Made by a program: the position numbers and the translations under genes
NCBI GenBank assembly: GCA_026710105.1
Contig: JAPORR010000084.1
Coordinates: 1 to 56,882, forward strand
Origin: Alphaproteobacteria bacterium
Lineage (GTDB): Bacteria > Pseudomonadota > Alphaproteobacteria > Bin95
Direction: 5' to 3'
DNA: 56,882 nt
Shown: positions 6,200 through 39,201 of the stretch, piece after piece
How positions within the stretch are numbered: the first letter of the stretch is position 1
Layout: the number at the start of each line of letters is the position of its first letter
Notes under the pieces: model-generated
Told to the model about the DNA's origin: nothing
The model's input: only the letters and a program-made list of their open reading frames with translations
Database searches by the model: none

Positions 6200-6241
6200 T
6201 TCCCGGAGATAGGGCGTTAGCTCCTGCATCTCTGCTGCGTG

Positions 6242-7087
6242 CTACATCTTCGCGGCGAATGCCTCGAAGGACCTTCCGCCCGTGCTGACGGCGTCGAACA
6301 GCATGGAGAAATGGTTGGCGCCTGGCACTGTCACTTTCTCGACCGTACAGCCGGCGGCCTCGGCGATGGCGGCATAGCCGGCGCTTTGCGCTTGCCAGCC
6401 ACCCGGCTCCTCGCCACCAACCGAGACGACCATCGGCACGGGCTTTCGTGGCGGGTTGGCGAAGACGTCGTTCCGCGCTGCCATGGCCTCGTCGAGCCTT
6501 ACCTCCTCATTAACTGATATCCGCCGCACGACTGACGTTTCATAGATACCGCTCATGCAATGGACGCCTGCGATGAGCGCTGCCGAAGCCGGGTCCGCGA
6601 GCAGCATCCCGGTCAAATGTGCTCCGGCCGAATGGCCGCCGACGAACAGCCGCGCCGGATCGCATCCCCATGCCCCTGCATGCGCATGGACGAAGGCAAG
6701 ACAGGCGCGCATCTCGGCCACGATCTCGTCCAGAGTCACATCTGGGCAGAGCGTGTAATCGACATTGGCGACCGTCACGCCCCGCTCGACGAAGCCACCC
6801 ACGGCGAAGCTGTGGTCGGCCTTGGAGAATCGGCGCCAGTAACCGCCATGAATGAAGATGAAGAGTGTGCCATTGCTGCCGGAGGCTGGGCGGTGCAAGT
6901 CGAGCACCTCCCGCGGGCCGGGCCCGTAGGCGACGTCATAGCTGCCGGGCCAAGCCTTGCGCGCTGCCTCGGCTGCCGCCAGATACTTGCCGAGGTAGCG
7001 TTCGACTGCCTCGTCGCCCACGGCGGCGCGCGGATTGAAATGCGCTTCCAGTGTCGCGTCGTCCGCTGAACGCCAATCGAATGTCAT
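6242..7087 (-). CDS. alpha/beta hydrolase (esterase/arylformamidase-like)
   Basis: 'HGGYWRRFSK' oxyanion-type motif and nucleophile elbow 'GGHSAGAHL'. Start moved to ATG 7087 ('MTFDWRS', GGAGGG Shine-Dalgarno). Confidence 0.85.
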   Translation of the reverse strand: MTFDWRSADDATLEAHFNPRAAVGDEAVERYLGKYLAAAEAARKAWPGSYDVAYGPGPREVLDLHRPASGSNGTLFIFIHGGYWRRFSKADHSFAVGGFVERGVTVANVDYTLCPDVTLDEIVAEMRACLAFVHAHAGAWGCDPARLFVGGHSAGAHLTGMLLADPASAALIAGVHCMSGIYETSVVRRISVNEEVRLDEAMAARNDVFANPPRKPVPMVVSVGGEEPGGWQAQSAGYAAIAEAAGCTVEKVTVPGANHFSMLFDAVSTGGRSFEAFAAKM

Positions 7088-7253
7088 CTCACCCTCCCTT
7101 GTGTTCGCACGCGCGCCGAAGAGAGGTCGGTCTCTCGGTTCCGCTCTTGATCTCATGGTTTCGATCCGGGTCGATTTTATCATCCGTATCATGCGGCTGC
7201 GAAATTCGGAGGCGGGTCACCTATGCCGCTTGCTCGCTACTACCTGCACTGCT

Positions 7254-8093: not shown

Positions 8094-8268
8094 AATTTCC
8101 TTCTTGAAGCTCACGCTCGGGGGCGAAGAATACAACCGTATTTCTCCTTACCTGCAACAGGCTGTGCGGGGCGCATGAGGCAAACTGAGTCATCGGGCGT
8201 TGACCTTGATGCATGCGATGTCCATGTTGGCGGCAACATGTTATCCGCCAGAAAAAGGCCGCCGCTTC

Positions 8269-12257: not shown

Positions 12258-13727
12258 ATGATCGATATACGGCCGGTCTTCTTCATCATCGGCTGGCTGC
12301 TGGTCATGCTCGCCGGCGCGATGTTGCTGCCTGCGGTGGTCGAGACCGGCCGGGCTGAGTCGGAATCAACCGTTTTCCTGATCGGCGCGGCCATCACGCT
12401 CTTCGTCGGCGGGCTGCTGGTCGCCGTCTGTAGCTCCGTGCGACCGCATACCCAACTATATCGTTATCTCACACTCAGGCAGTCCTTTCTGATAGCGGTA
12501 TTGAGCTGGATTGTGCTCGGTGCCTTCGCTGCCCTGCCTTTGCTTCTGCTTTCGGACACCGACCTGAGTGTGACGGACGCCATGTTCGAGGCGGTTTCGG
12601 GCATTACGACCACGGGCTCGACCGTCCTCACCGGCCTTGATGATATGGCACCGGGCATCCTGCTCTGGCGGGCCCTGCTACAGTGGCTTGGCGGCATGGG
12701 CATCATCGTGACCGCAATTGCGGTCTCCCCGCTGCTCCGGGTCGGTGGCATGCAGATATTCCGGATCGAATCGAGCGACCGGTCGGAAAAAGTGCTACCG
12801 CGCGCCGCGCAGATTGCAGGCTATATCGGCGTCATCTATCTCATTATGACCGCCGCGCTGACTGGAGCGCTCACCTTTGCAGGGCTTGGGCTGTTTGATG
12901 CGGTCGTCCACGCCATGACGACCATTGCAACCGGTGGCTTCTCGACGATGGACGGCTCCGTCGGCGCGTTCGGCAACCCGGCAGTGGAATGGATCGTCAT
13001 CGCCGGCATGGTAGCCGGCTCGCTGCCCTTCGTGCTCTACATTCAGCTCATGCGCGGACGGCGAACGCGGCTCTTGGCTGACAGCCAGGTCCGCGCCTTT
13101 CTCGGCATACTTGGCGTGTCGATTGCCGTGCTGACAGTTGCGCATGCGCTAACTAACGCTGTGGACCCGCTCGAGGCGCTTCGGCAGGTTGCCTTCAATA
13201 CCACCTCCTACATGACTGGAACCGGTTATGTGACCGCAGATTTAGCCGCCTGGGGCGGGTTCGCGCCGACGGCACTCTTCTGCCTCATGTTCATCGGCGG
13301 CTGCGCCGGTTCGACCACATGCGGAATCAAGGTTTTCCGCCTCCAGGTGCTGTTTGCCGAGGCGCGCGCCCAGCTCGGCCGACTGCTTCATCCCCACGGG
13401 GTCTATGTGCCCCATTACGCCGGCAAGCCGATCACGGCCTCTGTAGCCGCTTCAGTGACCAGCTTTGTATTCCTGTTTATTGCCGCCTTCGCCGCGATCA
13501 CTGCCGGGCTTGGAATTGCAGGCCTCGACCTCGAGACAGCTGTCACGGGTGCTGCCACCGCCATCGCGAATGTTGGCCCCGGCCTCGGGGAAACCATCGG
13601 GCCACAGGGCAATTTCTCTTCGCTCAACGATCCCGCCAAGTGGCTGCTGATCTGCGGCATGCTCCTCGGCCGGCTCGAAGTGCTGAGTGTCCTCCTCCTC
13701 TTCACCCCCCGCTTCTGGCGTTCGTGA
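12258..13727 (+). CDS. trkH: TrkH-family potassium uptake protein
   Basis: Multi-pass membrane protein with repeated 'TTTG/ATGGFS/MTGTGY/CAGSTTCGIK' pore-loop-like motifs. Start at ATG 12258 ('MIDIRPVFFIIG'). Confidence 0.9.
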   Translation: MIDIRPVFFIIGWLLVMLAGAMLLPAVVETGRAESESTVFLIGAAITLFVGGLLVAVCSSVRPHTQLYRYLTLRQSFLIAVLSWIVLGAFAALPLLLLSDTDLSVTDAMFEAVSGITTTGSTVLTGLDDMAPGILLWRALLQWLGGMGIIVTAIAVSPLLRVGGMQIFRIESSDRSEKVLPRAAQIAGYIGVIYLIMTAALTGALTFAGLGLFDAVVHAMTTIATGGFSTMDGSVGAFGNPAVEWIVIAGMVAGSLPFVLYIQLMRGRRTRLLADSQVRAFLGILGVSIAVLTVAHALTNAVDPLEALRQVAFNTTSYMTGTGYVTADLAAWGGFAPTALFCLMFIGGCAGSTTCGIKVFRLQVLFAEARAQLGRLLHPHGVYVPHYAGKPITASVAASVTSFVFLFIAAFAAITAGLGIAGLDLETAVTGAATAIANVGPGLGETIGPQGNFSSLNDPAKWLLICGMLLGRLEVLSVLLLFTPRFWRS

Positions 13728-13767
13728 AGCAGGTGTCCTGCTGGCAAATAGGATCGGAGCCAAGATC

Positions 13768-15012
13768 ATGGCAAACCAACCCACCGCTGCAGTGGTTGGC
13801 GCCGGCATAGTCGGCGTCTGCTGCGCTCTCTACCTCCAGAACGAGGGGTTCAACGTCACCCTGATAGATCGCGGTGGGCCAGGCGAGGAGGCTTCCTTCG
13901 GCAATCTTGGCGGTTTCGGCGTGGCGTCCTGTCCGCCGGCCGCTATGCCGGGCATCCTTGCCAAGGTGCCGAACATGCTGCTCGACGCGGACGCGCCGCT
14001 GAAGCTTCGTTGGAGCCATGCTATCAGGGCACTGCCTTGGTTTCTGCAGTTCACCGCCAATGCCCGCCGCGAACGGGTCGAGGCAAACGCTGCCGCCCGG
14101 CAGAGCCTGCTCGACAAGGCGCATGAGGCGGTCGATCCGCTGATCGCGGAAGCGGGAGCACAGCATCTGATGAGTCACACCGGGCTCATGTTTACCTTCG
14201 AGAGCGAGCAGAGCTTCCGGGCCGCGTCCTACGCCTTCGACCTTCGTCGGCGGAACGGCGTTCGGATGGACCTGTTGGACGGCGACGAGGCGCGGCAGGT
14301 GCAGCCTGCGCTGAGCCCAGCAGTGGTACGCGCCTGGCGTGTCTCGGACTTCTGGCATACCCTTGACCCGCTCCGACTGGTGCAGGCGCTGGCCGCGCTT
14401 TTCGAGAGGCGTGGCGGCCGGTTGGATACACGGACGGTAAGCGGCTTTGACATCGGCCCGGACGGAGTGCGCGCGCTCAGAACCGCCGAAGGCGACCTGC
14501 CGGTCAGGATCGTCGTCGTGGCGGCCGGTGTGTGGTCTCGACGTCTTGCGGCCATGCTCGGCACGCGCGTGCCCTTGGAAGCCGAGCGCGGCTACCACGC
14601 CATGTTCCGTGACACGGATGTTTCCATGAATGGCGGCATCATCTCCGTAGACCGACATGTTGCAGTGACACCTATGGCGGCCGGTGTGCGCGTCGGCGGC
14701 GTCGCCGAATTTGCCCCACCTGAAGCGCCGCCAGACCCAAGGATTGCCGCACGTGTTCGCCACCACGGGGAGGCGCTGTTTCCTCGGCTGAAGGGCGGAC
14801 GTGTCACCGAATGGGTCGGGCCGCGCCCGTCGCACCCGGATTCCAGGCCAGTCATTGGCCGCTCGCCGCGCTTCGCGAATGTGCTGTTCGCCTTTGGGCA
14901 CGACCATCTCGGCCTCACCATGGGCGGGATTACCGGCAGGCTGATTTCCGAACTCGCCGTCGCCCGCCCGCCGAGCGTAGACCTTGCGCCTTTTCGCCCG
15001 GACAGGTTCTGA
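13768..15012 (+). CDS. FAD-dependent oxidoreductase (D-amino-acid dehydrogenase-like)
   Basis: Rossmann motif 'AVVGAGIVGVCCALYL' immediately after ATG 13768. 414 aa, DAO-family layout. Confidence 0.85.
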   Translation: MANQPTAAVVGAGIVGVCCALYLQNEGFNVTLIDRGGPGEEASFGNLGGFGVASCPPAAMPGILAKVPNMLLDADAPLKLRWSHAIRALPWFLQFTANARRERVEANAAARQSLLDKAHEAVDPLIAEAGAQHLMSHTGLMFTFESEQSFRAASYAFDLRRRNGVRMDLLDGDEARQVQPALSPAVVRAWRVSDFWHTLDPLRLVQALAALFERRGGRLDTRTVSGFDIGPDGVRALRTAEGDLPVRIVVVAAGVWSRRLAAMLGTRVPLEAERGYHAMFRDTDVSMNGGIISVDRHVAVTPMAAGVRVGGVAEFAPPEAPPDPRIAARVRHHGEALFPRLKGGRVTEWVGPRPSHPDSRPVIGRSPRFANVLFAFGHDHLGLTMGGITGRLISELAVARPPSVDLAPFRPDRF

Positions 15013-15171
15013 ACCTGGGCCTGATTTCACCGGACCGTTGCGAAAGCATTTAGCAGTATGTCGGCGTTCTCGAACGTAGGGCTCATTTTGTCTGTCGGTT
15101 AGCGAGTTGGAGATCTCGATTAACGCGGTTTTTGTTGGTTTTCCGAAGTGAGTTTGATCGGCGGACACGCG

Positions 15172-15597
15172 TTATGCGTGTATTTCGGCCCTGATCAAGA
15201 CCGCATAAGCGGGGTTTTCCGGATTTTGGACGGAGTCAGGCGTGCTGACGCTCGTGGAAAATGAGGGGCGGAAGTTGTAGTTCAGATTTGCCAGGGTCAT
15301 CCGCCCTGCGGCGCGTTCGGCCTCACGGACATAATCCGGGGATGTCGTCCGGTAGATGACCACCATCTCACGCCAGCCCTCTTTCCGGTATTGATTCCAC
15401 CTTCCCTCTGGATTCGTGGTGATCCCCACCTTGAACCCCCCGTTGTGCCTTGCGTAGGCTCCCAAGGCCCTGCGCAGGGTGGGGATAATTCCGGAAATAT
15501 GCCCTGTCCAGACATTCCACCTGACCGGCATCGCGGTTCGCCCCCGCCCGCCGGAGCCGCTCGTACGGGCGCGTCGCGGTCTTCCGGGCGTGTCCAT
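15172..15597 (-). CDS. hypothetical small protein with GIY-YIG/T5orf172-like core (island ORF 5)
   Basis: 'GGFKVGITTNPEGRWNQY...VREAERA' resembles the YIG-strand/Arg/Glu core. Hand-counted G/C-ending codons are about 70%. An alternative ATG lies at 15531. Confidence 0.6.
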   Translation of the reverse strand: MDTPGRPRRARTSGSGGRGRTAMPVRWNVWTGHISGIIPTLRRALGAYARHNGGFKVGITTNPEGRWNQYRKEGWREMVVIYRTTSPDYVREAERAAGRMTLANLNYNFRPSFSTSVSTPDSVQNPENPAYAVLIRAEIHA

Positions 15598-15637
15598 GCC
15601 CCGAGACGGCGGCGCCGCTCAGGACCGCGTCTATCGC

Positions 15638-16213
15638 CTATTTTAATTTTTGCATGCCCTGGCGGTGTTTTGGATTTTTTGGCTTGGACATGGATTTATG
15701 CGTAACCGTCTCCCCTATGGTGACCCGGGGAGGTTCATTGGGACTGATTTGCAGTGTCATTTGGGTTGTTTTTTCCTCGTGTTTCTCATCCACCCAGTAA
15801 GCCAGTATCGCGTATGTTGAAGCCCGATACACCACTTCGAATAGAGTGATGATCCGTTGCCGGATTGACCCGTCCTCGTCAGGCACTCCATGGAGCAACT
15901 TAAAAAGTCCATGGGTCGAGTGCTCAAATTCGGAGATGAATTCCCTCAGCGCCGTTTCCAGTTCCTGTTTATGGACAAATCTCCGTTCGCTCAGGTTGAG
16001 GATAATGGAACGGATAGTGTCGCAGTACACTTGCCATTTGGCTGATTGCTTTTGACCGTCTGGCCAGAAGGGTCTGCCTTCCTCGGCCAGGCGCTCAATC
16101 GCTCCCTGTGCCATGACAACGTGACTGGAAACCGTTTTTTGCTCAAACCGCTGAATGACATCAAAGAACTCCAGTGATCGATTCTCGAAGCGTTTTGTTT
16201 TGTTTTTCTTCAT
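15638..16213 (-). CDS. hypothetical helical protein with Lys-rich N- and C-terminal tails (island ORF 4, AT-rich)
   Basis: 191-aa uninterrupted ORF in a visibly AT-richer stretch. Protein-like composition with no recognisable motif. Confidence 0.65.
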   Translation of the reverse strand: MKKNKTKRFENRSLEFFDVIQRFEQKTVSSHVVMAQGAIERLAEEGRPFWPDGQKQSAKWQVYCDTIRSIILNLSERRFVHKQELETALREFISEFEHSTHGLFKLLHGVPDEDGSIRQRIITLFEVVYRASTYAILAYWVDEKHEEKTTQMTLQISPNEPPRVTIGETVTHKSMSKPKNPKHRQGMQKLK

Positions 16214-16488
16214 GGTCGGGCTATCCCTTCCTCTTCATGCATCCCGGCCACACGGCCGGCGGATGTCCGTTAAGCGGCCTTATCGGCCCCGCGCCCCGTG
16301 AATCGCCCGTACGGCGCGGATCCCCTTTCAGGGGCATGTTGGGCCGTCCAGGGCGCGGAATCGACGCACGGCCCGGCCGCTGGCGAAACCGCGAGGGGAC
16401 GGGAAACGAAAACCGCACGGGAAATAATCGAAGAGCACGAAGCGTGGATCGGGATCTGCGGCTGATTGGAACGGCAAACCGTCATAGG

Positions 16489-16510
16489 GGGCGATCCGAA
16501 GACCGCCCCG
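16489..16510 (-). terminator. stable hairpin with UUCG tetraloop just after the stop of island ORF 3
   Basis: The minus strand reads GGGGCGGUC-UUCG-GAUCGCCCC, starting 5 nt after the TAA at 16515-16517. There is no clean U-tract, so terminator function is uncertain. Confidence 0.35.
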
Positions 16511-16514
16511 CGTG

Positions 16515-16979
16515 TTAGTTGCTGGCCGGAATGCAGCTGTTGCCTGCCTGTTCCCAGGTTGTGTTGGACGCGGCGTTGCAGGCGTTCCGCGCCTGGACGC
16601 AGGCCGCATAATTCGCCGACTGCAGCGTTCCGCCGACAGTTGGAGTGTATGGCGCGAAACATCTGGTCGCGGAGCCTCCCCACGGATTGGATGGATCGCG
16701 GGCGGTGCGGAAACAGTGCATCCTCCAAGGGTTCAGATTGCCCTCGTAGAGACTGTAAAGCACGACGACATAATGCGCGTTTGGCTCAAGCCCGTTGACT
16801 TGCAAATGGTGGCCGCTACCCTGGAGATTCCCGGCGGCGTTGAGTTCCCCCAGCCGCTTGCCCCAGACACGGGTTGCCGCCTTGGCATCATTCCCCATGA
16901 TGGCGGCTCCCACCAGTTTCGGGGCACCCTCCGGGAACGAATCGGCGAAGCTTTTGGCTGAGCTGATACTAAGAGACAC
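16515..16979 (-). CDS. hypothetical protein, GTG start, Cys/Asn-rich C-terminus (island ORF 3)
   Basis: Hand-counted G/C-ending codons are about 70% across the ORF, including upstream of the first ATG (16898). The frame is closed by a TAG about 40 nt upstream of GTG 16979. No signal peptide. Confidence 0.6.
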   Translation of the reverse strand: MSLSISSAKSFADSFPEGAPKLVGAAIMGNDAKAATRVWGKRLGELNAAGNLQGSGHHLQVNGLEPNAHYVVVLYSLYEGNLNPWRMHCFRTARDPSNPWGGSATRCFAPYTPTVGGTLQSANYAACVQARNACNAASNTTWEQAGNSCIPASN

Positions 16980-17140
16980 GCGGATACTGTCGTGATCGGC
17001 AGGGTTGTCATCGCATAACTAGCAATCACGCTTGAAATTCGTTCTCATCGCGTTCCGACATCACCAATTTCTTGCCGCCCGGCCAAGTCACGAATGGCAA
17101 GGACCAATGGGAAGGGGCATGACCCATATGACGAACCCGG

Positions 17141-17599
17141 TCAGCAGTTCGGCGTCATTCGGCCGTTGGTCGTGTCGTACCTCATTGAACGCAGTGTATC
17201 CGGAGTTGCCGCACATTCGTGATTTGAGATTTGAGGGGACGGAACCGCGACCCAGCCGTTTGATGAAACTTTCCACCATCCACACTGGATCCTGACATCA
17301 CACTTGCAGTGATGTCCAAGCTGTCCCTTCCATCCCTCTATGCGGTCCCGCTGCTCGTCATTCAAGTCATCCGGGTCTATGGAAGTGATACCTTTGTCCA
17401 GCCACTGCGGAAATCCGCCCGCAAACTGCATCTTGCACGATCCCCTGCCGGCCTCGCTGTAGCCAAATGCCAGTCCGCATGTCCAGGTAGGGTCGCCATA
17501 CCAGTACTCGCACAGTGAAACCCCATCTGCTGACGCCGTGCCCGCGCCAGCAAACAACAGTACAGCGGTCAACACTGCGGTCATTGTGCTCCTGTTCAT
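17141..17599 (-). CDS. secreted Cys/Trp-rich hypothetical protein (island ORF 2)
   Basis: Signal peptide 'MNRSTMTAVLTAVLLFAGAGTASA'. The protein has 8 Cys and 7 Trp. GAGGTG Shine-Dalgarno 4 nt before the ATG, which lies 3 nt after the upstream frame's stop. Confidence 0.75.
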   Translation of the reverse strand: MNRSTMTAVLTAVLLFAGAGTASADGVSLCEYWYGDPTWTCGLAFGYSEAGRGSCKMQFAGGFPQWLDKGITSIDPDDLNDEQRDRIEGWKGQLGHHCKCDVRIQCGWWKVSSNGWVAVPSPQISNHECAATPDTLRSMRYDTTNGRMTPNC

Positions 17600-17714
17600 A
17601 TTTCACCTCTTTGCCGTGAAAATACCAGGATATTCGGGCGCAAAACTCCCTTTGCCGTCAAAACGCTGGGCCGCCACTATTGCGGCGTCCATCTTGCCGA
17701 CTGTGACCGATAGG

Positions 17715-18331
17715 CTACCCCGTACAGGCCTGAAGCCCCGCCCGCTCGGCCGACTTCTGTTTGGAGGATATGGGAGAGTGAAGCACCGCGTCAACCATGA
17801 GCGTTTTGACGATTCTGCACACGCAGGAGACGATCCCGAACAGCGTGAGCGAGCGCGCCTGAAAGTAGATCCGACAACCGACGCAGCGCATCCCGCCCCG
17901 ACGGCCAGTCCGGCGGCACGAAATCCGGCGTGCCGCATCGCAAGGCACAGGCGACAGAGCTTGTCCGGCGATTTCGGGGTTTCCTCTGTCTCCGGCAGGA
18001 CTGCCGCTGCGACAATGGCGGTGCGCTCGTCGCCAAGCACCCGCCGCAACAGTTCGACTGCCTGCCCGCGCTGACCGTCGTAAGCCATCGCCCTGAGGTG
18101 CCTTTCCAGCAGGGTGCGCATGGCGAGGGTCGAGGACGCTTCGCCGCCGGCATGCATGTTGCCTGCAGCCGTCTCTATGGCGCAGGAGAGGCCGCGCTGC
18201 TCCCCTGCATCCAGCATCATGCGATGGCGTATCCAAGGCGGCCAGGCTATCCTCACCGTCCGCGCCCTCATTGATTTGCGGGACAGCATCGAGATTATAG
18301 TCTCCGGCAACGAGATCGACCGAGAAAGCAT
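17715..18331 (-). pseudogene. hypothetical gene with an internal reading-frame switch (island ORF 1)
   Basis: Codon third-position G/C favours the frame of track ORF 17603..18421 upstream of ~17900. It favours the frame of track ORF 17715..18341 downstream. See findings. Confidence 0.4.
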
Positions 18332-18334
18332 GGC

Positions 18335-19378
18335 ATGACAACCTTGTGTCCAGAAGTCCTCAACAGCCCGGCTGCCTGGCGTGGTCCGGAGATACGCGCC
18401 GGGAGTGGTTGGGAGTTTCACCTGTCCGATGCGGAGATCGAAGAAATCGACCGGGCTGTCGCGGGCATCGACCGGCCTCTGATCGAAGTGGATCGGGAGA
18501 CCTTCCCGCTGCCATTACTCGGGCCCAAACTCACACGGCTGCAGAGCGAATTGCTGGAGGGCAGGGGATTCTTCCTGCTTCGCGGGCTGCCGGTCGCACG
18601 GATGAGCCGGCAGGAGGCCGTAGCCGCGTTCTGGGGCATCGGCGCGCATTTCGGCAGGGCGCGTTCGCAAAATGCCAAGGGCCACCTGATGGGACATGTG
18701 AAGGACATGGGCCTGCATAGCAGCGACCCTAATGTGCGGGTGTACCAGACAAGGGAGCGGCAACGGTTCCACACCGACTCGGTCGATATCGTGGCGCTGA
18801 TGTGTCTGCAGCCTGCACGGTCGGGCGGACTGAGTTCGATCGTGAGTTCCGTCGCTGTCCACAATGAGATTGTGCGCCGGAGGCCGGATCTTGCTAGCGA
18901 GCTCTACTGCCCCTTCCAGACGGACCGGCGCGGCGAAGTGCCGGAAGGCATGGATCCCTGGTTCGCCCTGCCGGTGTTCAACCGCATTGGAGATGAATTG
19001 ACGACGATCTATGCTCGTCGCTACATCGAATCCGCGCGGCGCTTCCCGGAGGTTCCAGCCCTAACGAAAGCGCAAGTAGAAGCGCTCGACCTGGTCGACT
19101 CACTCTGTGAGAGCGCCGATTTCCGGCTCGATATGGCCTTTGAGGCCGGCGATATGCAGTTTCTCTGCAACCATGTCATTCTGCATGATCGCACCGCCTT
19201 TGAAGACTGGCCGGAGCCGGAACGTCGTCGCCACCTTCTGCGGCTCTGGCTCTGCCCACCCGCGGGGCGACAGCTTCCGGACGCCTTCGCCGCCCGCTAC
19301 GGCAGTGTTACGCCTGGCGATCGGGGCGGCATCGTGGTCAAGGATGCGGTGCCTGTTGTCCCTCTGGAGGCAGCTTAG
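18335..19378 (+). CDS. TauD/TfdA-family Fe(II)/2-oxoglutarate dioxygenase
   Basis: 347 aa with 'FHTDSVD' (HxD facial-triad motif) and 'FLCNHVILHDRTAFED'. Confidence 0.88.
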   Translation: MTTLCPEVLNSPAAWRGPEIRAGSGWEFHLSDAEIEEIDRAVAGIDRPLIEVDRETFPLPLLGPKLTRLQSELLEGRGFFLLRGLPVARMSRQEAVAAFWGIGAHFGRARSQNAKGHLMGHVKDMGLHSSDPNVRVYQTRERQRFHTDSVDIVALMCLQPARSGGLSSIVSSVAVHNEIVRRRPDLASELYCPFQTDRRGEVPEGMDPWFALPVFNRIGDELTTIYARRYIESARRFPEVPALTKAQVEALDLVDSLCESADFRLDMAFEAGDMQFLCNHVILHDRTAFEDWPEPERRRHLLRLWLCPPAGRQLPDAFAARYGSVTPGDRGGIVVKDAVPVVPLEAA

Positions 19379-20018
19379 GCCGCGCCGAGGCGAGGAACTG
19401 CACGAGCGCATCCTCCGGCAGGTTGCACGGCAATTCGGCGTTCGTATTGATGGCTGCCCTGAGCCGGCGGCGATAATCCGTACGGCTTATTTCGATGGCA
19501 CCGAATGTCGCCAGATGCTTAGTAAAAAATTGCGTATCCAGAAGGAGATAACCACCGAGATAAAGACGCACTGCGAGATGGACGAGTGCCACCTTGCTGG
19601 CATCCCTGACGCGCGAGAACATGCTTTCGCCGAAGAAAGCAGCGCCGATGGATACGCCGTAAAGACCACCCTCCAGCTGGCCGTCAAGTCGGCATTCGAC
19701 ACTATGCGCAGCTCCCCTGCGGTGAAGCTCTTGGTATAGACGCAGAATGTCGTCATTGATCCAAGTTTCGTTGTCATCCGTGCGCGGCTCGGCGCAAGCT
19801 GCAATCACCGCATCGAAATCGCCATCGACCAACACCTCGAACCGACCCTGGCGCACTGTGCGGGCGAGACGGCGCGAAACATGGACGCCGTCGAGGGGAA
19901 TAATTCCACGCTGGCGCGGATCGAGCCAGTAAAGCGTATCTGAGAGCCGTCCATTCGCCATGGGGAAAAATCCCATCCGGTAGGCGGCCAACAGAATGTC
20001 CGCCGAAATCTGCATCAA
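19338..20018 (-). CDS. aat: leucyl/phenylalanyl-tRNA--protein transferase
   Basis: 226 aa with 'LLAAYRMGFFPMA', 'LYWLDPRQRGIIPL' and 'FFGESMFS'. Confidence 0.92.
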   Translation of the reverse strand: MMQISADILLAAYRMGFFPMANGRLSDTLYWLDPRQRGIIPLDGVHVSRRLARTVRQGRFEVLVDGDFDAVIAACAEPRTDDNETWINDDILRLYQELHRRGAAHSVECRLDGQLEGGLYGVSIGAAFFGESMFSRVRDASKVALVHLAVRLYLGGYLLLDTQFFTKHLATFGAIEISRTDYRRRLRAAINTNAELPCNLPEDALVQFLASARPKLPPEGQQAPHP

Positions 20019-21355
20019 GCGTTATCCATCCAACGTTCAAGCCAATGGATGTCACAGGCCCCATTATTGAAATCTTGGTTGCGAGCAATGCGCCGGTGCA
20101 AATCCAAATTTGTCTCTATGCCTTCGATGACATATTCGTCCAGTGCGCGGGCAAGGCGGGCAGTTGCGATTGCGCGGTCCGGCCCATGCGCGACCAGCTT
20201 GGCGACCAAGCTGTCATAGTGCGGCGGCACGATGCACCCTGCGAAGAGAGCAGAATCAACTCGGATCCCAGGTCCCCCCGGCGGATGATATTCGCGGACC
20301 CGTCCAGGGGATGGCACGAAGGTGCGGGCATCCTCGGCATTCACACGGCATTCGATGGCATGGCCGTCAAAGCGTACATCCTTCTGCCCAAAGGTTAGCT
20401 TACCGCCGGCCGCTACCGTCAACTGCTCACGCACAAGATCCACGCCCGTCACCATCTCGGTCACCGGATGTTCGACCTGAAGGCGTGTGTTCATTTCGAT
20501 GAAATGGAAATCGCGGCCATCGAACAGGAATTCCAGTGTGCCGACGCCCAGATAGCCGAGCCGGCGGACCGCTGTCGCGGCGCGCTCGCCGATCCCGGTC
20601 CTGAGTGACTCGTCTAGGATGGGGGAGGGTGCTTCCTCAATGACTTTCTGGTGGCGGCGCTGAATCGAGCAGTCGCGCTCGCCGAGATGGACAGCGTTAC
20701 CATGGGAGTCTGCAAGAATCTGGATCTCAATATGGCGTGGGTTCTCGATGAACTTCTCGATGAATACCCGCGAATCCCCGAACGCGCCGGCAGCCTCGCG
20801 CCGCGCCAGTCCGAGTGCAGGTCCCAGATTGGTCGGCGTGCGTGCGATCTGCATGCCGCGCCCGCCGCCGCCCGCCGCTGCCTTGACTAGCACCGGGTAG
20901 CCGATCTCAGCGGCGATCCGTGCCGCTTCCGTTTCGTCCTCGATGGCATTGTCACCCCCCGGCACGCCGGAAACGCCGACCGCCGCCATGGCTGCCTTGG
21001 CGGCGATCTTGTCACCCATCGTTGCGATATGGTCGGGGCTCGGCCCGATGAAGATAAAGCCGTGGTCGGCTACAACCTGCGCGAAGGTAGAGTTCTCTGC
21101 AAGGAAACCGAGGCCTGGATGGATCGCATCAGCACCCGCCACAGTGGCAGCGGAAATCAGCGCCGCCATGCTCAGATAGCTATCGCGCGGGGCCGGCGGG
21201 CCGATGCAAACGCTCTCGTCGGCCAAGCGCACATGCATAGCATCTGAGTCGATGGTGGAATGGACTGCAACGGTGCGGATGCCGAGGTCGCGGCAAGCAC
21301 GAATGACACGAAGCGCGATCTCGCCGCGATTGGCGATCAGAACCTTTTCGAACAC
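20015..21355 (-). CDS. accC: acetyl-CoA carboxylase, biotin carboxylase subunit
   Basis: 446 aa with 'MFEKVLIANRGEIALRVIRAC' and ATP-grasp motifs. Confidence 0.97.
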   Translation of the reverse strand: MFEKVLIANRGEIALRVIRACRDLGIRTVAVHSTIDSDAMHVRLADESVCIGPPAPRDSYLSMAALISAATVAGADAIHPGLGFLAENSTFAQVVADHGFIFIGPSPDHIATMGDKIAAKAAMAAVGVSGVPGGDNAIEDETEAARIAAEIGYPVLVKAAAGGGGRGMQIARTPTNLGPALGLARREAAGAFGDSRVFIEKFIENPRHIEIQILADSHGNAVHLGERDCSIQRRHQKVIEEAPSPILDESLRTGIGERAATAVRRLGYLGVGTLEFLFDGRDFHFIEMNTRLQVEHPVTEMVTGVDLVREQLTVAAGGKLTFGQKDVRFDGHAIECRVNAEDARTFVPSPGRVREYHPPGGPGIRVDSALFAGCIVPPHYDSLVAKLVAHGPDRAIATARLARALDEYVIEGIETNLDLHRRIARNQDFNNGACDIHWLERWMDNA

Positions 21356-39125: not shown

Positions 39126-39201
39126 GCGCCCGTAGCTCAGTGGATAGAGCGTCTGCCTCCGGAGCAGAAGGTCGCACGTTCGAATCGTGCCGGGCGCACC
39201 A
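39126..39201 (+). tRNA. tRNA-Arg (anticodon CCG)
   Basis: Hand-folded cloverleaf. Acceptor GCGCCCG/CGGGCGC, D arm GCTC-AGTGGATA-GAGC, anticodon arm TCTGC-CTCCGGA-GCAGA, T arm GCACG-TTCGAAT-CGTGC, encoded CCA. Confidence 0.95.

Follow-up and report, generated by a model that had tools for sequence, protein, structure and literature searches.

A five-ORF block in an uncultured alphaproteobacterial symbiont genome is probably a patchwork in a decaying island hotspot

The closest described counterparts of the locus analyzed here are strain-variable island hotspots that hold decayed remnants of integrative and conjugative elements (ICE) or integrative and mobilisable elements (IME). The locus is a block of five open reading frames (here named ORF1 to ORF5) located between the genes of a DAO-family oxidoreductase and a TauD-family dioxygenase on contig JAPORR010000084.1. 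Positions 1 to 56,882 of this contig are referred to as the window, and coordinates are window positions unless another contig is named. With the described hotspots the locus shares a presence/absence polymorphism at a fixed site in strains that are 97–99% identical to each other. Furthermore, the same site contains TrwC fragments, IS21 IstB, a serine recombinase and McrBC in sister strains, truncated or frameshifted genes are present, and the slot of the window carries a cargo gene of low G+C content (ORF4). The locus differs from such hotspots in that the window's version is without integrase, relaxase, insertion sequence (IS), tRNA target and flanking repeats, and has no DNA in common with the fillers of the other strains. 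An initial annotation of the window had proposed that the block forms one undescribed accessory system of secreted effectors plus a nuclease-based toxin or defence pair. Based on our analysis we consider it probable that the block is a patchwork in a decaying island hotspot and not one system.

At the level of the single ORFs three further groups of described proteins have to be compared. These are the small secreted cysteine-rich proteins of host-associated bacteria for ORF2, the Avd and 23S rRNA intervening-sequence (IVS) four-helix bundles for ORF4, and the small T5orf172/MUG113-like branch of the GIY-YIG superfamily (PF10544, PF13455, PF01541) for ORF5.

Strain variation between the DAO gene and ORF2

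To compare the locus among strains, three sister-strain contigs (L064, L072 and L073) were recovered by exact-protein look-ups. Strain L064 shares 97.5% identity with the window across >18 kb; positions 15046–17048, however, are replaced by 273 bp. In strain L073, with an identity of 99%, 8.8 kb stand instead of positions 15110–16994, with AAA_30, TrwC and LysR fragments together with IS21 IstB, a porin and a lipoprotein-like ORF of 499 aa. In strain L072 (97.2% identity) the similarity to the window breaks off at 17049, and other DNA of at least 10 kb follows (L072 10478–20459). It contains a TrwC fragment, a serine recombinase that is divided between two ORFs, the gene pair McrB/McrC and an HU-like gene. 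The 273 bp of L064 are themselves related to the relaxase fragments found in the other two sister strains. ORF1 and ORF2 are kept beside the TauD gene in all three sister strains. Since ORF3 to ORF5 are replaced there while ORF1 and ORF2 are kept, the hypervariable slot holds ORF3–5 and not ORF1–2. The strain-variable part is therefore confined to 15046–17048, and the single block assumed in the initial annotation has to be divided.

From 17049 onwards the window is again homologous to L064 and L072. In these two sister strains relaxase-fragment ORFs read into the spacer at 17049–17140. The last 22 residues of a 108-aa ORF of L064 and of a 169-aa TrwC-match ORF of L072 map to 17054–17119 on the plus strand. 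The "GSDIT" stretch encoded here was not relied on as relaxase homology, as it is merely the read-through tail of the sister-strain ORFs. A 127-aa ORF of L072, equal in length to ORF3 as called, was also considered as its counterpart but rejected, since the two show no similarity. The filler of L072 additionally holds a small secreted Cys/Trp-rich ORF of 131 aa.

The strain comparison largely refutes one accessory system of all five ORFs, in which ORF2 and ORF3 would act as secreted effectors next to a nuclease-based pair. The common strand, the tight packing and the lack of any match at a curated family threshold speak for such a system, as do the signal peptides of the full-length relatives of ORF3 and the putative one of ORF2. 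However, the sister strains retain ORF1 and ORF2 without ORF3–5. Additionally, ORF1 is unconstrained and carries frameshifting indels, ORF3 is truncated and has lost its signal peptide, motifs of the ORF5 C-terminus are lost, and the relatives of the ORFs occur separately and never together. We regard a five-ORF system as highly improbable. As framed initially the block is of limited importance; it serves as an example of a decaying island hotspot in an uncultured symbiont genome, and as a caution that tightly packed ORFs on the same strand without family matches should not be taken for a system.

The window is identical to a part of the 65-kb metagenome scaffold ROBB21-1_SAMN13943197 scaffold_109. 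Judged from the name of the sample, the scaffold may stem from the coral-reef sponge study PMC8163846, and the source bacterium is probably associated with a sponge. At least six further metagenome assemblies contained the haplotype with ORF3–5 at 99–100% identity, so that the haplotype is not an assembly artefact. The G+C content is 57.4% in the segment 15046–17048, compared with 61.1% in the window and 66.2% in the DAO gene. A low value had been reported for 15638–16213, and our count for ORF4 of 48.4% agrees with this. The strong deviation is limited to ORF4, while ORF3 and ORF5 are near the genome level (~58–61%). The foreign origin proposed for the block is supported insofar as the ORF3–5 segment is missing from strains of 97–99% identity and the composition of ORF4 is deviant, but it applies to a part of the block only.

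The nearest reference genomes are metagenome-assembled genomes (MAGs) of Alphaproteobacteria and Thalassobaculaceae with a DAO identity of 79–86%; the earlier placement into the Rhizobiales is unsupported. In distant relatives (~82% nucleotide identity) synteny covers the window from position 8200 up to the DAO stop and is lost at 15010–15028. None of 63 DAO-anchored reference genomes contained ORF1–5, TauD, aat (leucyl/phenylalanyl-tRNA-protein transferase) or accC within 10 kb of DAO. Since TauD, aat and accC are not near DAO in these genomes, the alignment of the locus across Rhizobiales that had been suggested is not possible at this distance.

That distant relatives have no ORF3–5 after DAO also bears on a second explanation, according to which ORF3–5 would be the ancestral native state of the locus, consisting of ordinary lineage-specific genes which the sister strains replaced by later insertions or deletions. 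Here, the truncation of ORF3 exactly at the junction with the conserved flank indicates a rearrangement in the lineage of the window instead. Relaxase-related sequence is located next to ORF2 in all three compared strains, and the G+C content of ORF4 lies 13 points under that of the genome. The native state would be in agreement with the recurrence of the haplotype in at least six samples at 99–100% identity, with the near-genome G+C content of ORF3 and ORF5 and with the lack of mobility genes or repeats in the segment. In view of both sides we judge this explanation to be improbable.

For the patchwork which we prefer, the following scenario can be proposed. The slot, which extends from the DAO stop codon to the sequence 3' of ORF2, would be a hotspot of recombination and integration. 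In strains of one species it would hold differing mobile-DNA remnants (TrwC fragments, IS21 IstB, McrBC, a split serine recombinase) or next to none. In the strain of the window the slot would have been filled by 15046–17048, and the junction on the side of ORF2 would have cut off the 5' end of a secreted-protein gene (ORF3). The remaining cargo of the segment would consist of one intact gene (ORF4) of a family that occurs near genes of mobile elements and of defence, and a putative GIY-YIG-clan gene with a drifted C-terminus (ORF5). Next to the slot, ORF1 would represent a dead gene or a non-coding spacer evolving neutrally, and ORF2 would encode a Sec-exported four-disulfide protein of a family common to several co-resident symbiont lineages. 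A conjugative or mobilisable element is the inferred origin of the 2-kb segment.

Other features of the block are compiled in Table 1. The six-frame ORF listing confirmed five ORFs in the same, minus-strand orientation between the DAO-family and TauD-family genes at the positions given by the initial annotation. Likewise, the tight packing of ORF1 and ORF2 was reproduced, with the ORF1 stop at 17603 and the ORF2 ATG at 17599. Searches of Pfam, NCBIfam, PADLOC and PHROGs gave no match above the curated thresholds for any of the five ORFs, and only ORF5 approached one, with 17.7–18.2 bits for T5orf172 (cut-off 20). The description of the five as orphans is correct in this respect, but ORF2, ORF3, ORF4 and ORF5 have homologs in metagenomes. 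No tRNA, integrase or IS was detected in or beside the block, the nearest tRNAs being located at 39126 and 56595, and a repeat scan found no direct or terminal repeats bracketing 15046–17048. The earlier remark that no such element marks the borders is thus valid for the window; for the locus it is misleading, since sister strains hold relaxase, IS21 and recombinase genes in the slot. Scans of the block for Rfam families, repeats, promoters and terminators were uninformative.

Table 1. Positions of the five ORFs, the strain-specific segment and the flanking genes in the window
Feature	Position	Strand	Assignment or source
DAO-family oxidoreductase	13687/13768-15012	+	six-frame ORF listing
Strain-specific 2.0-kb segment with ORF3-5	15046-17048		strain alignment
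ORF5	15172-15597 (long ATG start); 15172-15531 (from Met23)	-	small GIY-YIG-clan (T5orf172/MUG113-like) protein, putative
ORF4	15638-16213	-	intact 191-aa member of a widespread uncharacterised family
ORF3	16515-16979 (as ORF); 16515-17006 (as relic)	-	copy, truncated at the 5' end, from a secreted-protein family
Spacer 3' of ORF2, common to all strains	17049-17140		strain alignment
ORF2	17141-17599	-	intact gene, 152-aa predicted secreted 8-Cys protein, small unnamed family
ORF1	17603-18334, extendable to GTG at 18421	-	relic with frameshifts, or non-coding spacer, located between ORF2 and TauD
TauD-family dioxygenase	18335-19378	+	six-frame ORF listing

ORF1 and ORF2 beside the TauD gene

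ORF1 is a dead gene (pseudogene) or a non-coding spacer which evolves like neutral DNA. This follows from indels between strains whose lengths are not multiples of three and from a divergence at the neutral level. Among the aligned strains the region contained indels of 6, 1, 5, 10, 5, 2 and 5 nt. Its identity was 92–96.6% with 10–17 gap positions, whereas TrkH, DAO, TauD, aat and accC showed ~98% and zero gaps. The divergence of ORF1 (3.4–8%) is comparable to the synonymous divergence of its neighbours (1–7%). Furthermore, the gene calls differ by strain and gave proteins of 242, 215, 259 or 201 aa, an ORF on the opposite strand, or none.

A switch of the coding frame within ORF1 had been noticed earlier, and the G+C content at third codon positions confirms that the coding-like frame changes near 17900–17940. 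It follows the 242-aa frame from 18330 to ~17940 and then a second frame to ~17715. Among 8000 word candidates a five-frame concatenated search recovered no homologs of ORF1, which is a weak negative, and Pfam gave zero matches for ORF1, the plus-strand ORFs and the ORF1 calls of the sister strains.

The ATG of ORF1 (18334, minus strand) and the ATG of the TauD gene (18335, plus strand) stand back to back with zero intergenic bases (18332–18337). It is thus improbable that both starts are real, and the promoter of TauD must be located within the ORF1 relic. A further contig, L066, carries in the ORF1 region a stretch of N and an insert of 52 nt (2615–2666) that repeats window 18063–18114 in inverted orientation; this probably results from scaffolding.

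ORF2 is a real gene and the sole clearly functional, strain-conserved gene of the block. It was judged so because it is without indels among the strains, is under constraint with a ratio of non-synonymous to synonymous substitution rates (dN/dS) of 0.11–0.42, based on small counts, and belongs to a family with eight invariant cysteines. A Shine-Dalgarno-like AGAGGTGA is present just upstream of the ATG. By inspection, the N-terminus consists of the hydrophobic MNRSTMTAVLTAVLLFAGAGTASA ending in ASA, followed by DG, and both the hydrophobic stretch and the ASA motif are conserved across the family. The counts of 8 Cys and 7 Trp given for this signal-peptide protein in the initial annotation were correct.

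A profile search yielded nine clusters of ORF2 relatives with 37–94% identity. In 11 sequences of the family, down to an identity of 39%, the residues C30, C41, C55, C98, C100, C106, C129 and C152 were invariant. The AlphaFold2 (AF2) model of ORF2 had a predicted local distance difference test score (pLDDT) of 77 overall, of ~85 in the mature part and below 50 for residues 1–24, and no fold in the PDB matched it at E<0.001. Judged from these sequence features ORF2 is most likely a Sec-exported protein with four disulfide bonds.

The relatives of ORF2 (~150 aa; L076, L092–L098) are solitary genes in unrelated contexts on MAGs labelled Alphaproteobacteria, Rhodobacter sp. and Gammaproteobacteria. 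One sample (ERZ25067984) accounts for three of these loci, all of them large contigs. This distribution of the family suggests a secreted protein shared between lineages in one host environment. With the small secreted cysteine-rich proteins of host-associated bacteria ORF2 shares the signal-like N-terminus and the 8 invariant cysteines, as well as the confinement of its family to MAGs that appear to come from common host-associated samples. It differs from them in matching no described family by sequence or fold, and its export, disulfides and host association are predictions. We suggest with some doubt that ORF2 might be a four-disulfide host-interaction factor exchanged among unrelated symbionts of one host. 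A secreted 8-Cys family in several unrelated bacterial lineages, seemingly in one host environment, represents a minor by-product lead of this study.

ORF3, ORF4 and ORF5 of the strain-specific segment

For ORF3 eight homologs of 202–257 aa with 49–66% identity were found in metagenomes. All eight possess an N-terminal signal peptide and an AC.PE.GDNRVTRWTS region, and both are missing in the copy of the window. This copy corresponds to positions 66–230 of the 230 positions of the family hidden Markov model (HMM), and ~65 N-terminal positions are gone. In tblastn the similarity ends at 16988–17030, at the strain junction, and an in-frame stop is located upstream. ORF3 is a relic truncated at its 5' end and is presumably non-functional. 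It contains 5 Cys and 14 Asn, in accordance with its earlier description as a Cys/Asn-rich protein. The full-length relatives are solitary and lie in unrelated contexts.

ORF4 and ORF5 were concatenated for a HMMER search, which gave 264 matches at E<=0.001. Of these 149 were fetched, comprising 85 of the ORF4 type and 64 of the ORF5 type. The family of ORF4 thus contains at least 85 representative clusters; the best one, P0025, shares 58% identity over residues 1–190. ORF4 is full-length, and W60, E97 and H98 are invariant in the family. Its AF2 model (pLDDT 94.5; predicted template modelling score 0.85) shows five helices and a C-terminal beta hairpin.

The model had no match at E<0.001 in the PDB and BFVD, and the top matches were generic four-helix bundles. 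Avd and IVS-type proteins (PDB 2gsc, 2rld and 8ub8 chain C) were its best structural neighbours, though weak ones; like the model, they are up-down helical bundles. The E-values were 0.065–1.6, the query-normalised TM-scores were 0.27–0.37, and ORF4 has an extra helix and the C-terminal beta hairpin in addition. We consider the likeness of the predicted structure to Avd and IVS-type proteins as a generic bundle similarity and not as evidence for membership.

The ORF4 family was unrecognised by Pfam, NCBIfam and PADLOC. In PADLOC none of the five ORFs had a match at E<0.01, the best being that of ORF4 to JetB (E=0.014). Scans at the family level in PADLOC gave only scattered weak matches, of which none was significant for ORF4, and 5 of 43 ORF5-family members matched a candidate system. 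Searches of PDB sequence profiles with the family profiles of ORF4 and ORF5 resulted in sub-threshold matches only.

Among the members P0028, P0029 and P0032 the ORF4 domain was found duplicated in tandem, joined to an XRE/HigA-type helix-turn-helix (HTH_3) domain and joined to the Methylase_S domain of HsdS of type I restriction-modification systems. Neighbours of ORF4 relatives include a resolvase and a KAP NTPase, and elsewhere ArdC, RepB primase and an AAA_15/DUF3226 pair. It is possible, and we propose it tentatively, that ORF4 represents a new domain family in the conflict between mobile elements and hosts (defence, anti-defence or toxin-antitoxin), because the confidently modelled fold is unmatched, the Trp and the Glu-His (EFEH) motif are invariant, and the fusions and neighbourhoods are tied to conflict. 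As an unnamed family of ~190 aa with such a fold and with fusions to XRE-type HTH and HsdS it is a second minor lead. In the loci L086 and L087 the ORF4 relative is paired divergently with an unannotated ORF of 221/238 aa, which contains the sequence LRNQLFHGG and is located next to a resolvase.

The 64 representative clusters of ORF5 relatives are ~110 aa in length and begin at the position of MPVRW, which corresponds to Met23 in the window. A gap of 40 nt between ORF4 and ORF5 (15598–15637) had been stated before; it applies to the long ATG start, but according to the family alignment ORF5 starts at Met23 (15531) and the gap is 106 nt. One gene caller gave ORF5 as a protein of 64 aa only.

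In Pfam 16 of 43 family members matched T5orf172, 15 matched MUG113 and 8 matched GIY-YIG (best E 4e-5, 1e-5 and 7e-6, respectively), so that the family matches all three models of the superfamily branch. The earlier description as a small GIY-YIG-like protein is therefore appropriate at the family level. Additionally, alignment to SLX1 and other GIY-YIG proteins places the KVGxTxNPxxR...H stretch of the family at their YIG/Arg region. The ORF5 of the window differs in remaining below every gathering score, with 18.2 bits for T5orf172 (cut-off 20), 14.9 for MUG113 (22.3) and 14.4 for GIY-YIG (22.6). It lacks the GGGG loop and the terminal YYVYV strand of the family and carries PSFSTS and AYAVL instead, and its C-terminal third is divergent. 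R44, E72 and N86 are located at family-invariant columns, and their equivalence to the catalytic residues of GIY-YIG proteins rests on a short SLX1 profile match with E=0.14. ORF5 is presumably non-functional. Elsewhere single proteins contain the ORF5-type domain twice or three times in tandem, or it forms the C-terminus of ArdC-type anti-restriction proteins (ArdcN and zincin); tandem or ArdC-fused examples are P0047, P0084, P0085, P0096, P0126 and P0149.

Co-occurrence of the families and surroundings of the slot

Family HMMs were run on the six-frame translations of 98 fetched loci. Outside the haplotype of the window, the families of ORF2, ORF3, ORF4 and ORF5 were never adjacent in these loci, and the gene tables of L074–L076, L086–L088 and L092–L098 agree with this result. 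A gene-neighbourhood check for each ORF, as recommended in the initial annotation, consequently speaks against a common system, as the relatives of ORF2 to ORF5 each stand alone in unrelated contexts and never together. ORF4-type and ORF5-type genes occurred together in none of six independent loci (L086, L087 and L089–L091 had the ORF4 type only, L088 had the ORF5 type only), and no ORF4–ORF5 fusion was present among the 149 representatives.

These data are relevant for a third explanation, a working two-gene module of ORF4 and ORF5 on the 2-kb segment, in which a GIY-YIG-type nuclease and a helical partner would serve in toxin-immunity, defence or anti-defence. The two genes are adjacent, on the same strand and 40–106 nt apart. 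ORF4 is full-length with W60, E97 and H98, and ORF5 has R44, E72 and N86; fusions to XRE/HigA-type HTH and HsdS in one family and to ArdC in the other would also fit, as would the resolvase, KAP NTPase, ArdC and AAA_15/DUF3226 pair near ORF4 relatives. However, a stable partnership is difficult to reconcile with five ORF4-family loci without an ORF5-family gene, one ORF5-family locus without an ORF4-family gene and zero fusions in 149 representatives. Moreover, ORF5 of the window is without the GGGG and YYVYV motifs, PADLOC gave no significant match for ORF4, and just 5 of 43 ORF5-family members matched a candidate system. A two-gene module is thus regarded as unlikely.

Several observations weigh against the patchwork in a decaying hotspot, which we nevertheless prefer. 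ORF4 is intact, and ORF5 keeps most of the near-invariant residues of its family (G10, G36, T38, P41, R44, M56, Y60, S64, E72 and N86) and might still be active. The recurrence of the ORF3–5 haplotype at 99–100% in several samples fits a recent origin or maintenance. The window's version of the slot is without mobility gene, tRNA or flanking repeat. Furthermore, the 2-kb segment has no detectable DNA in common with the islands of L072 or L073, so that common descent from one element is not demonstrated. Finally, the families of ORF4 and ORF5 were not found in PLSDB plasmids or in IMG/VR. This absence weakens the link to a conjugative element, which rests on one ArdC/RepB-primase neighbourhood and the ArdC fusions.

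The full family alignments were too diverse for the scans of loci, and reduced alignments were used instead; these recovered 3 metagenome loci and zero viral loci. A tblastn search of plasmids with ORF4, ORF5 and one further member per family gave no match. In a megablast comparison of 13000–20500 with PLSDB, accC was the sole match.

The genes around the slot showed further peculiarities. TrkH and DAO abut or overlap at 13727–13789, and in related species (L001–L012) ~1–3.5 kb of extra DNA is located between them, for example in L001 (9006–10001) and L005 (6587–10068). On the other side of the block, the 3' ends of TauD and aat overlap convergently by 41 nt (19338–19378), and this arrangement is kept in the sister strains. 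A second variable spot is present at window ~6200–7210 in comparison with L064 and L077, where homology is broken around 7105–7210. Here, the gene of a BD-FAE hydrolase is accompanied in the sister strain by a Phage_integrase fragment and by a DDE_3 transposase that has an HTH ORF with it.

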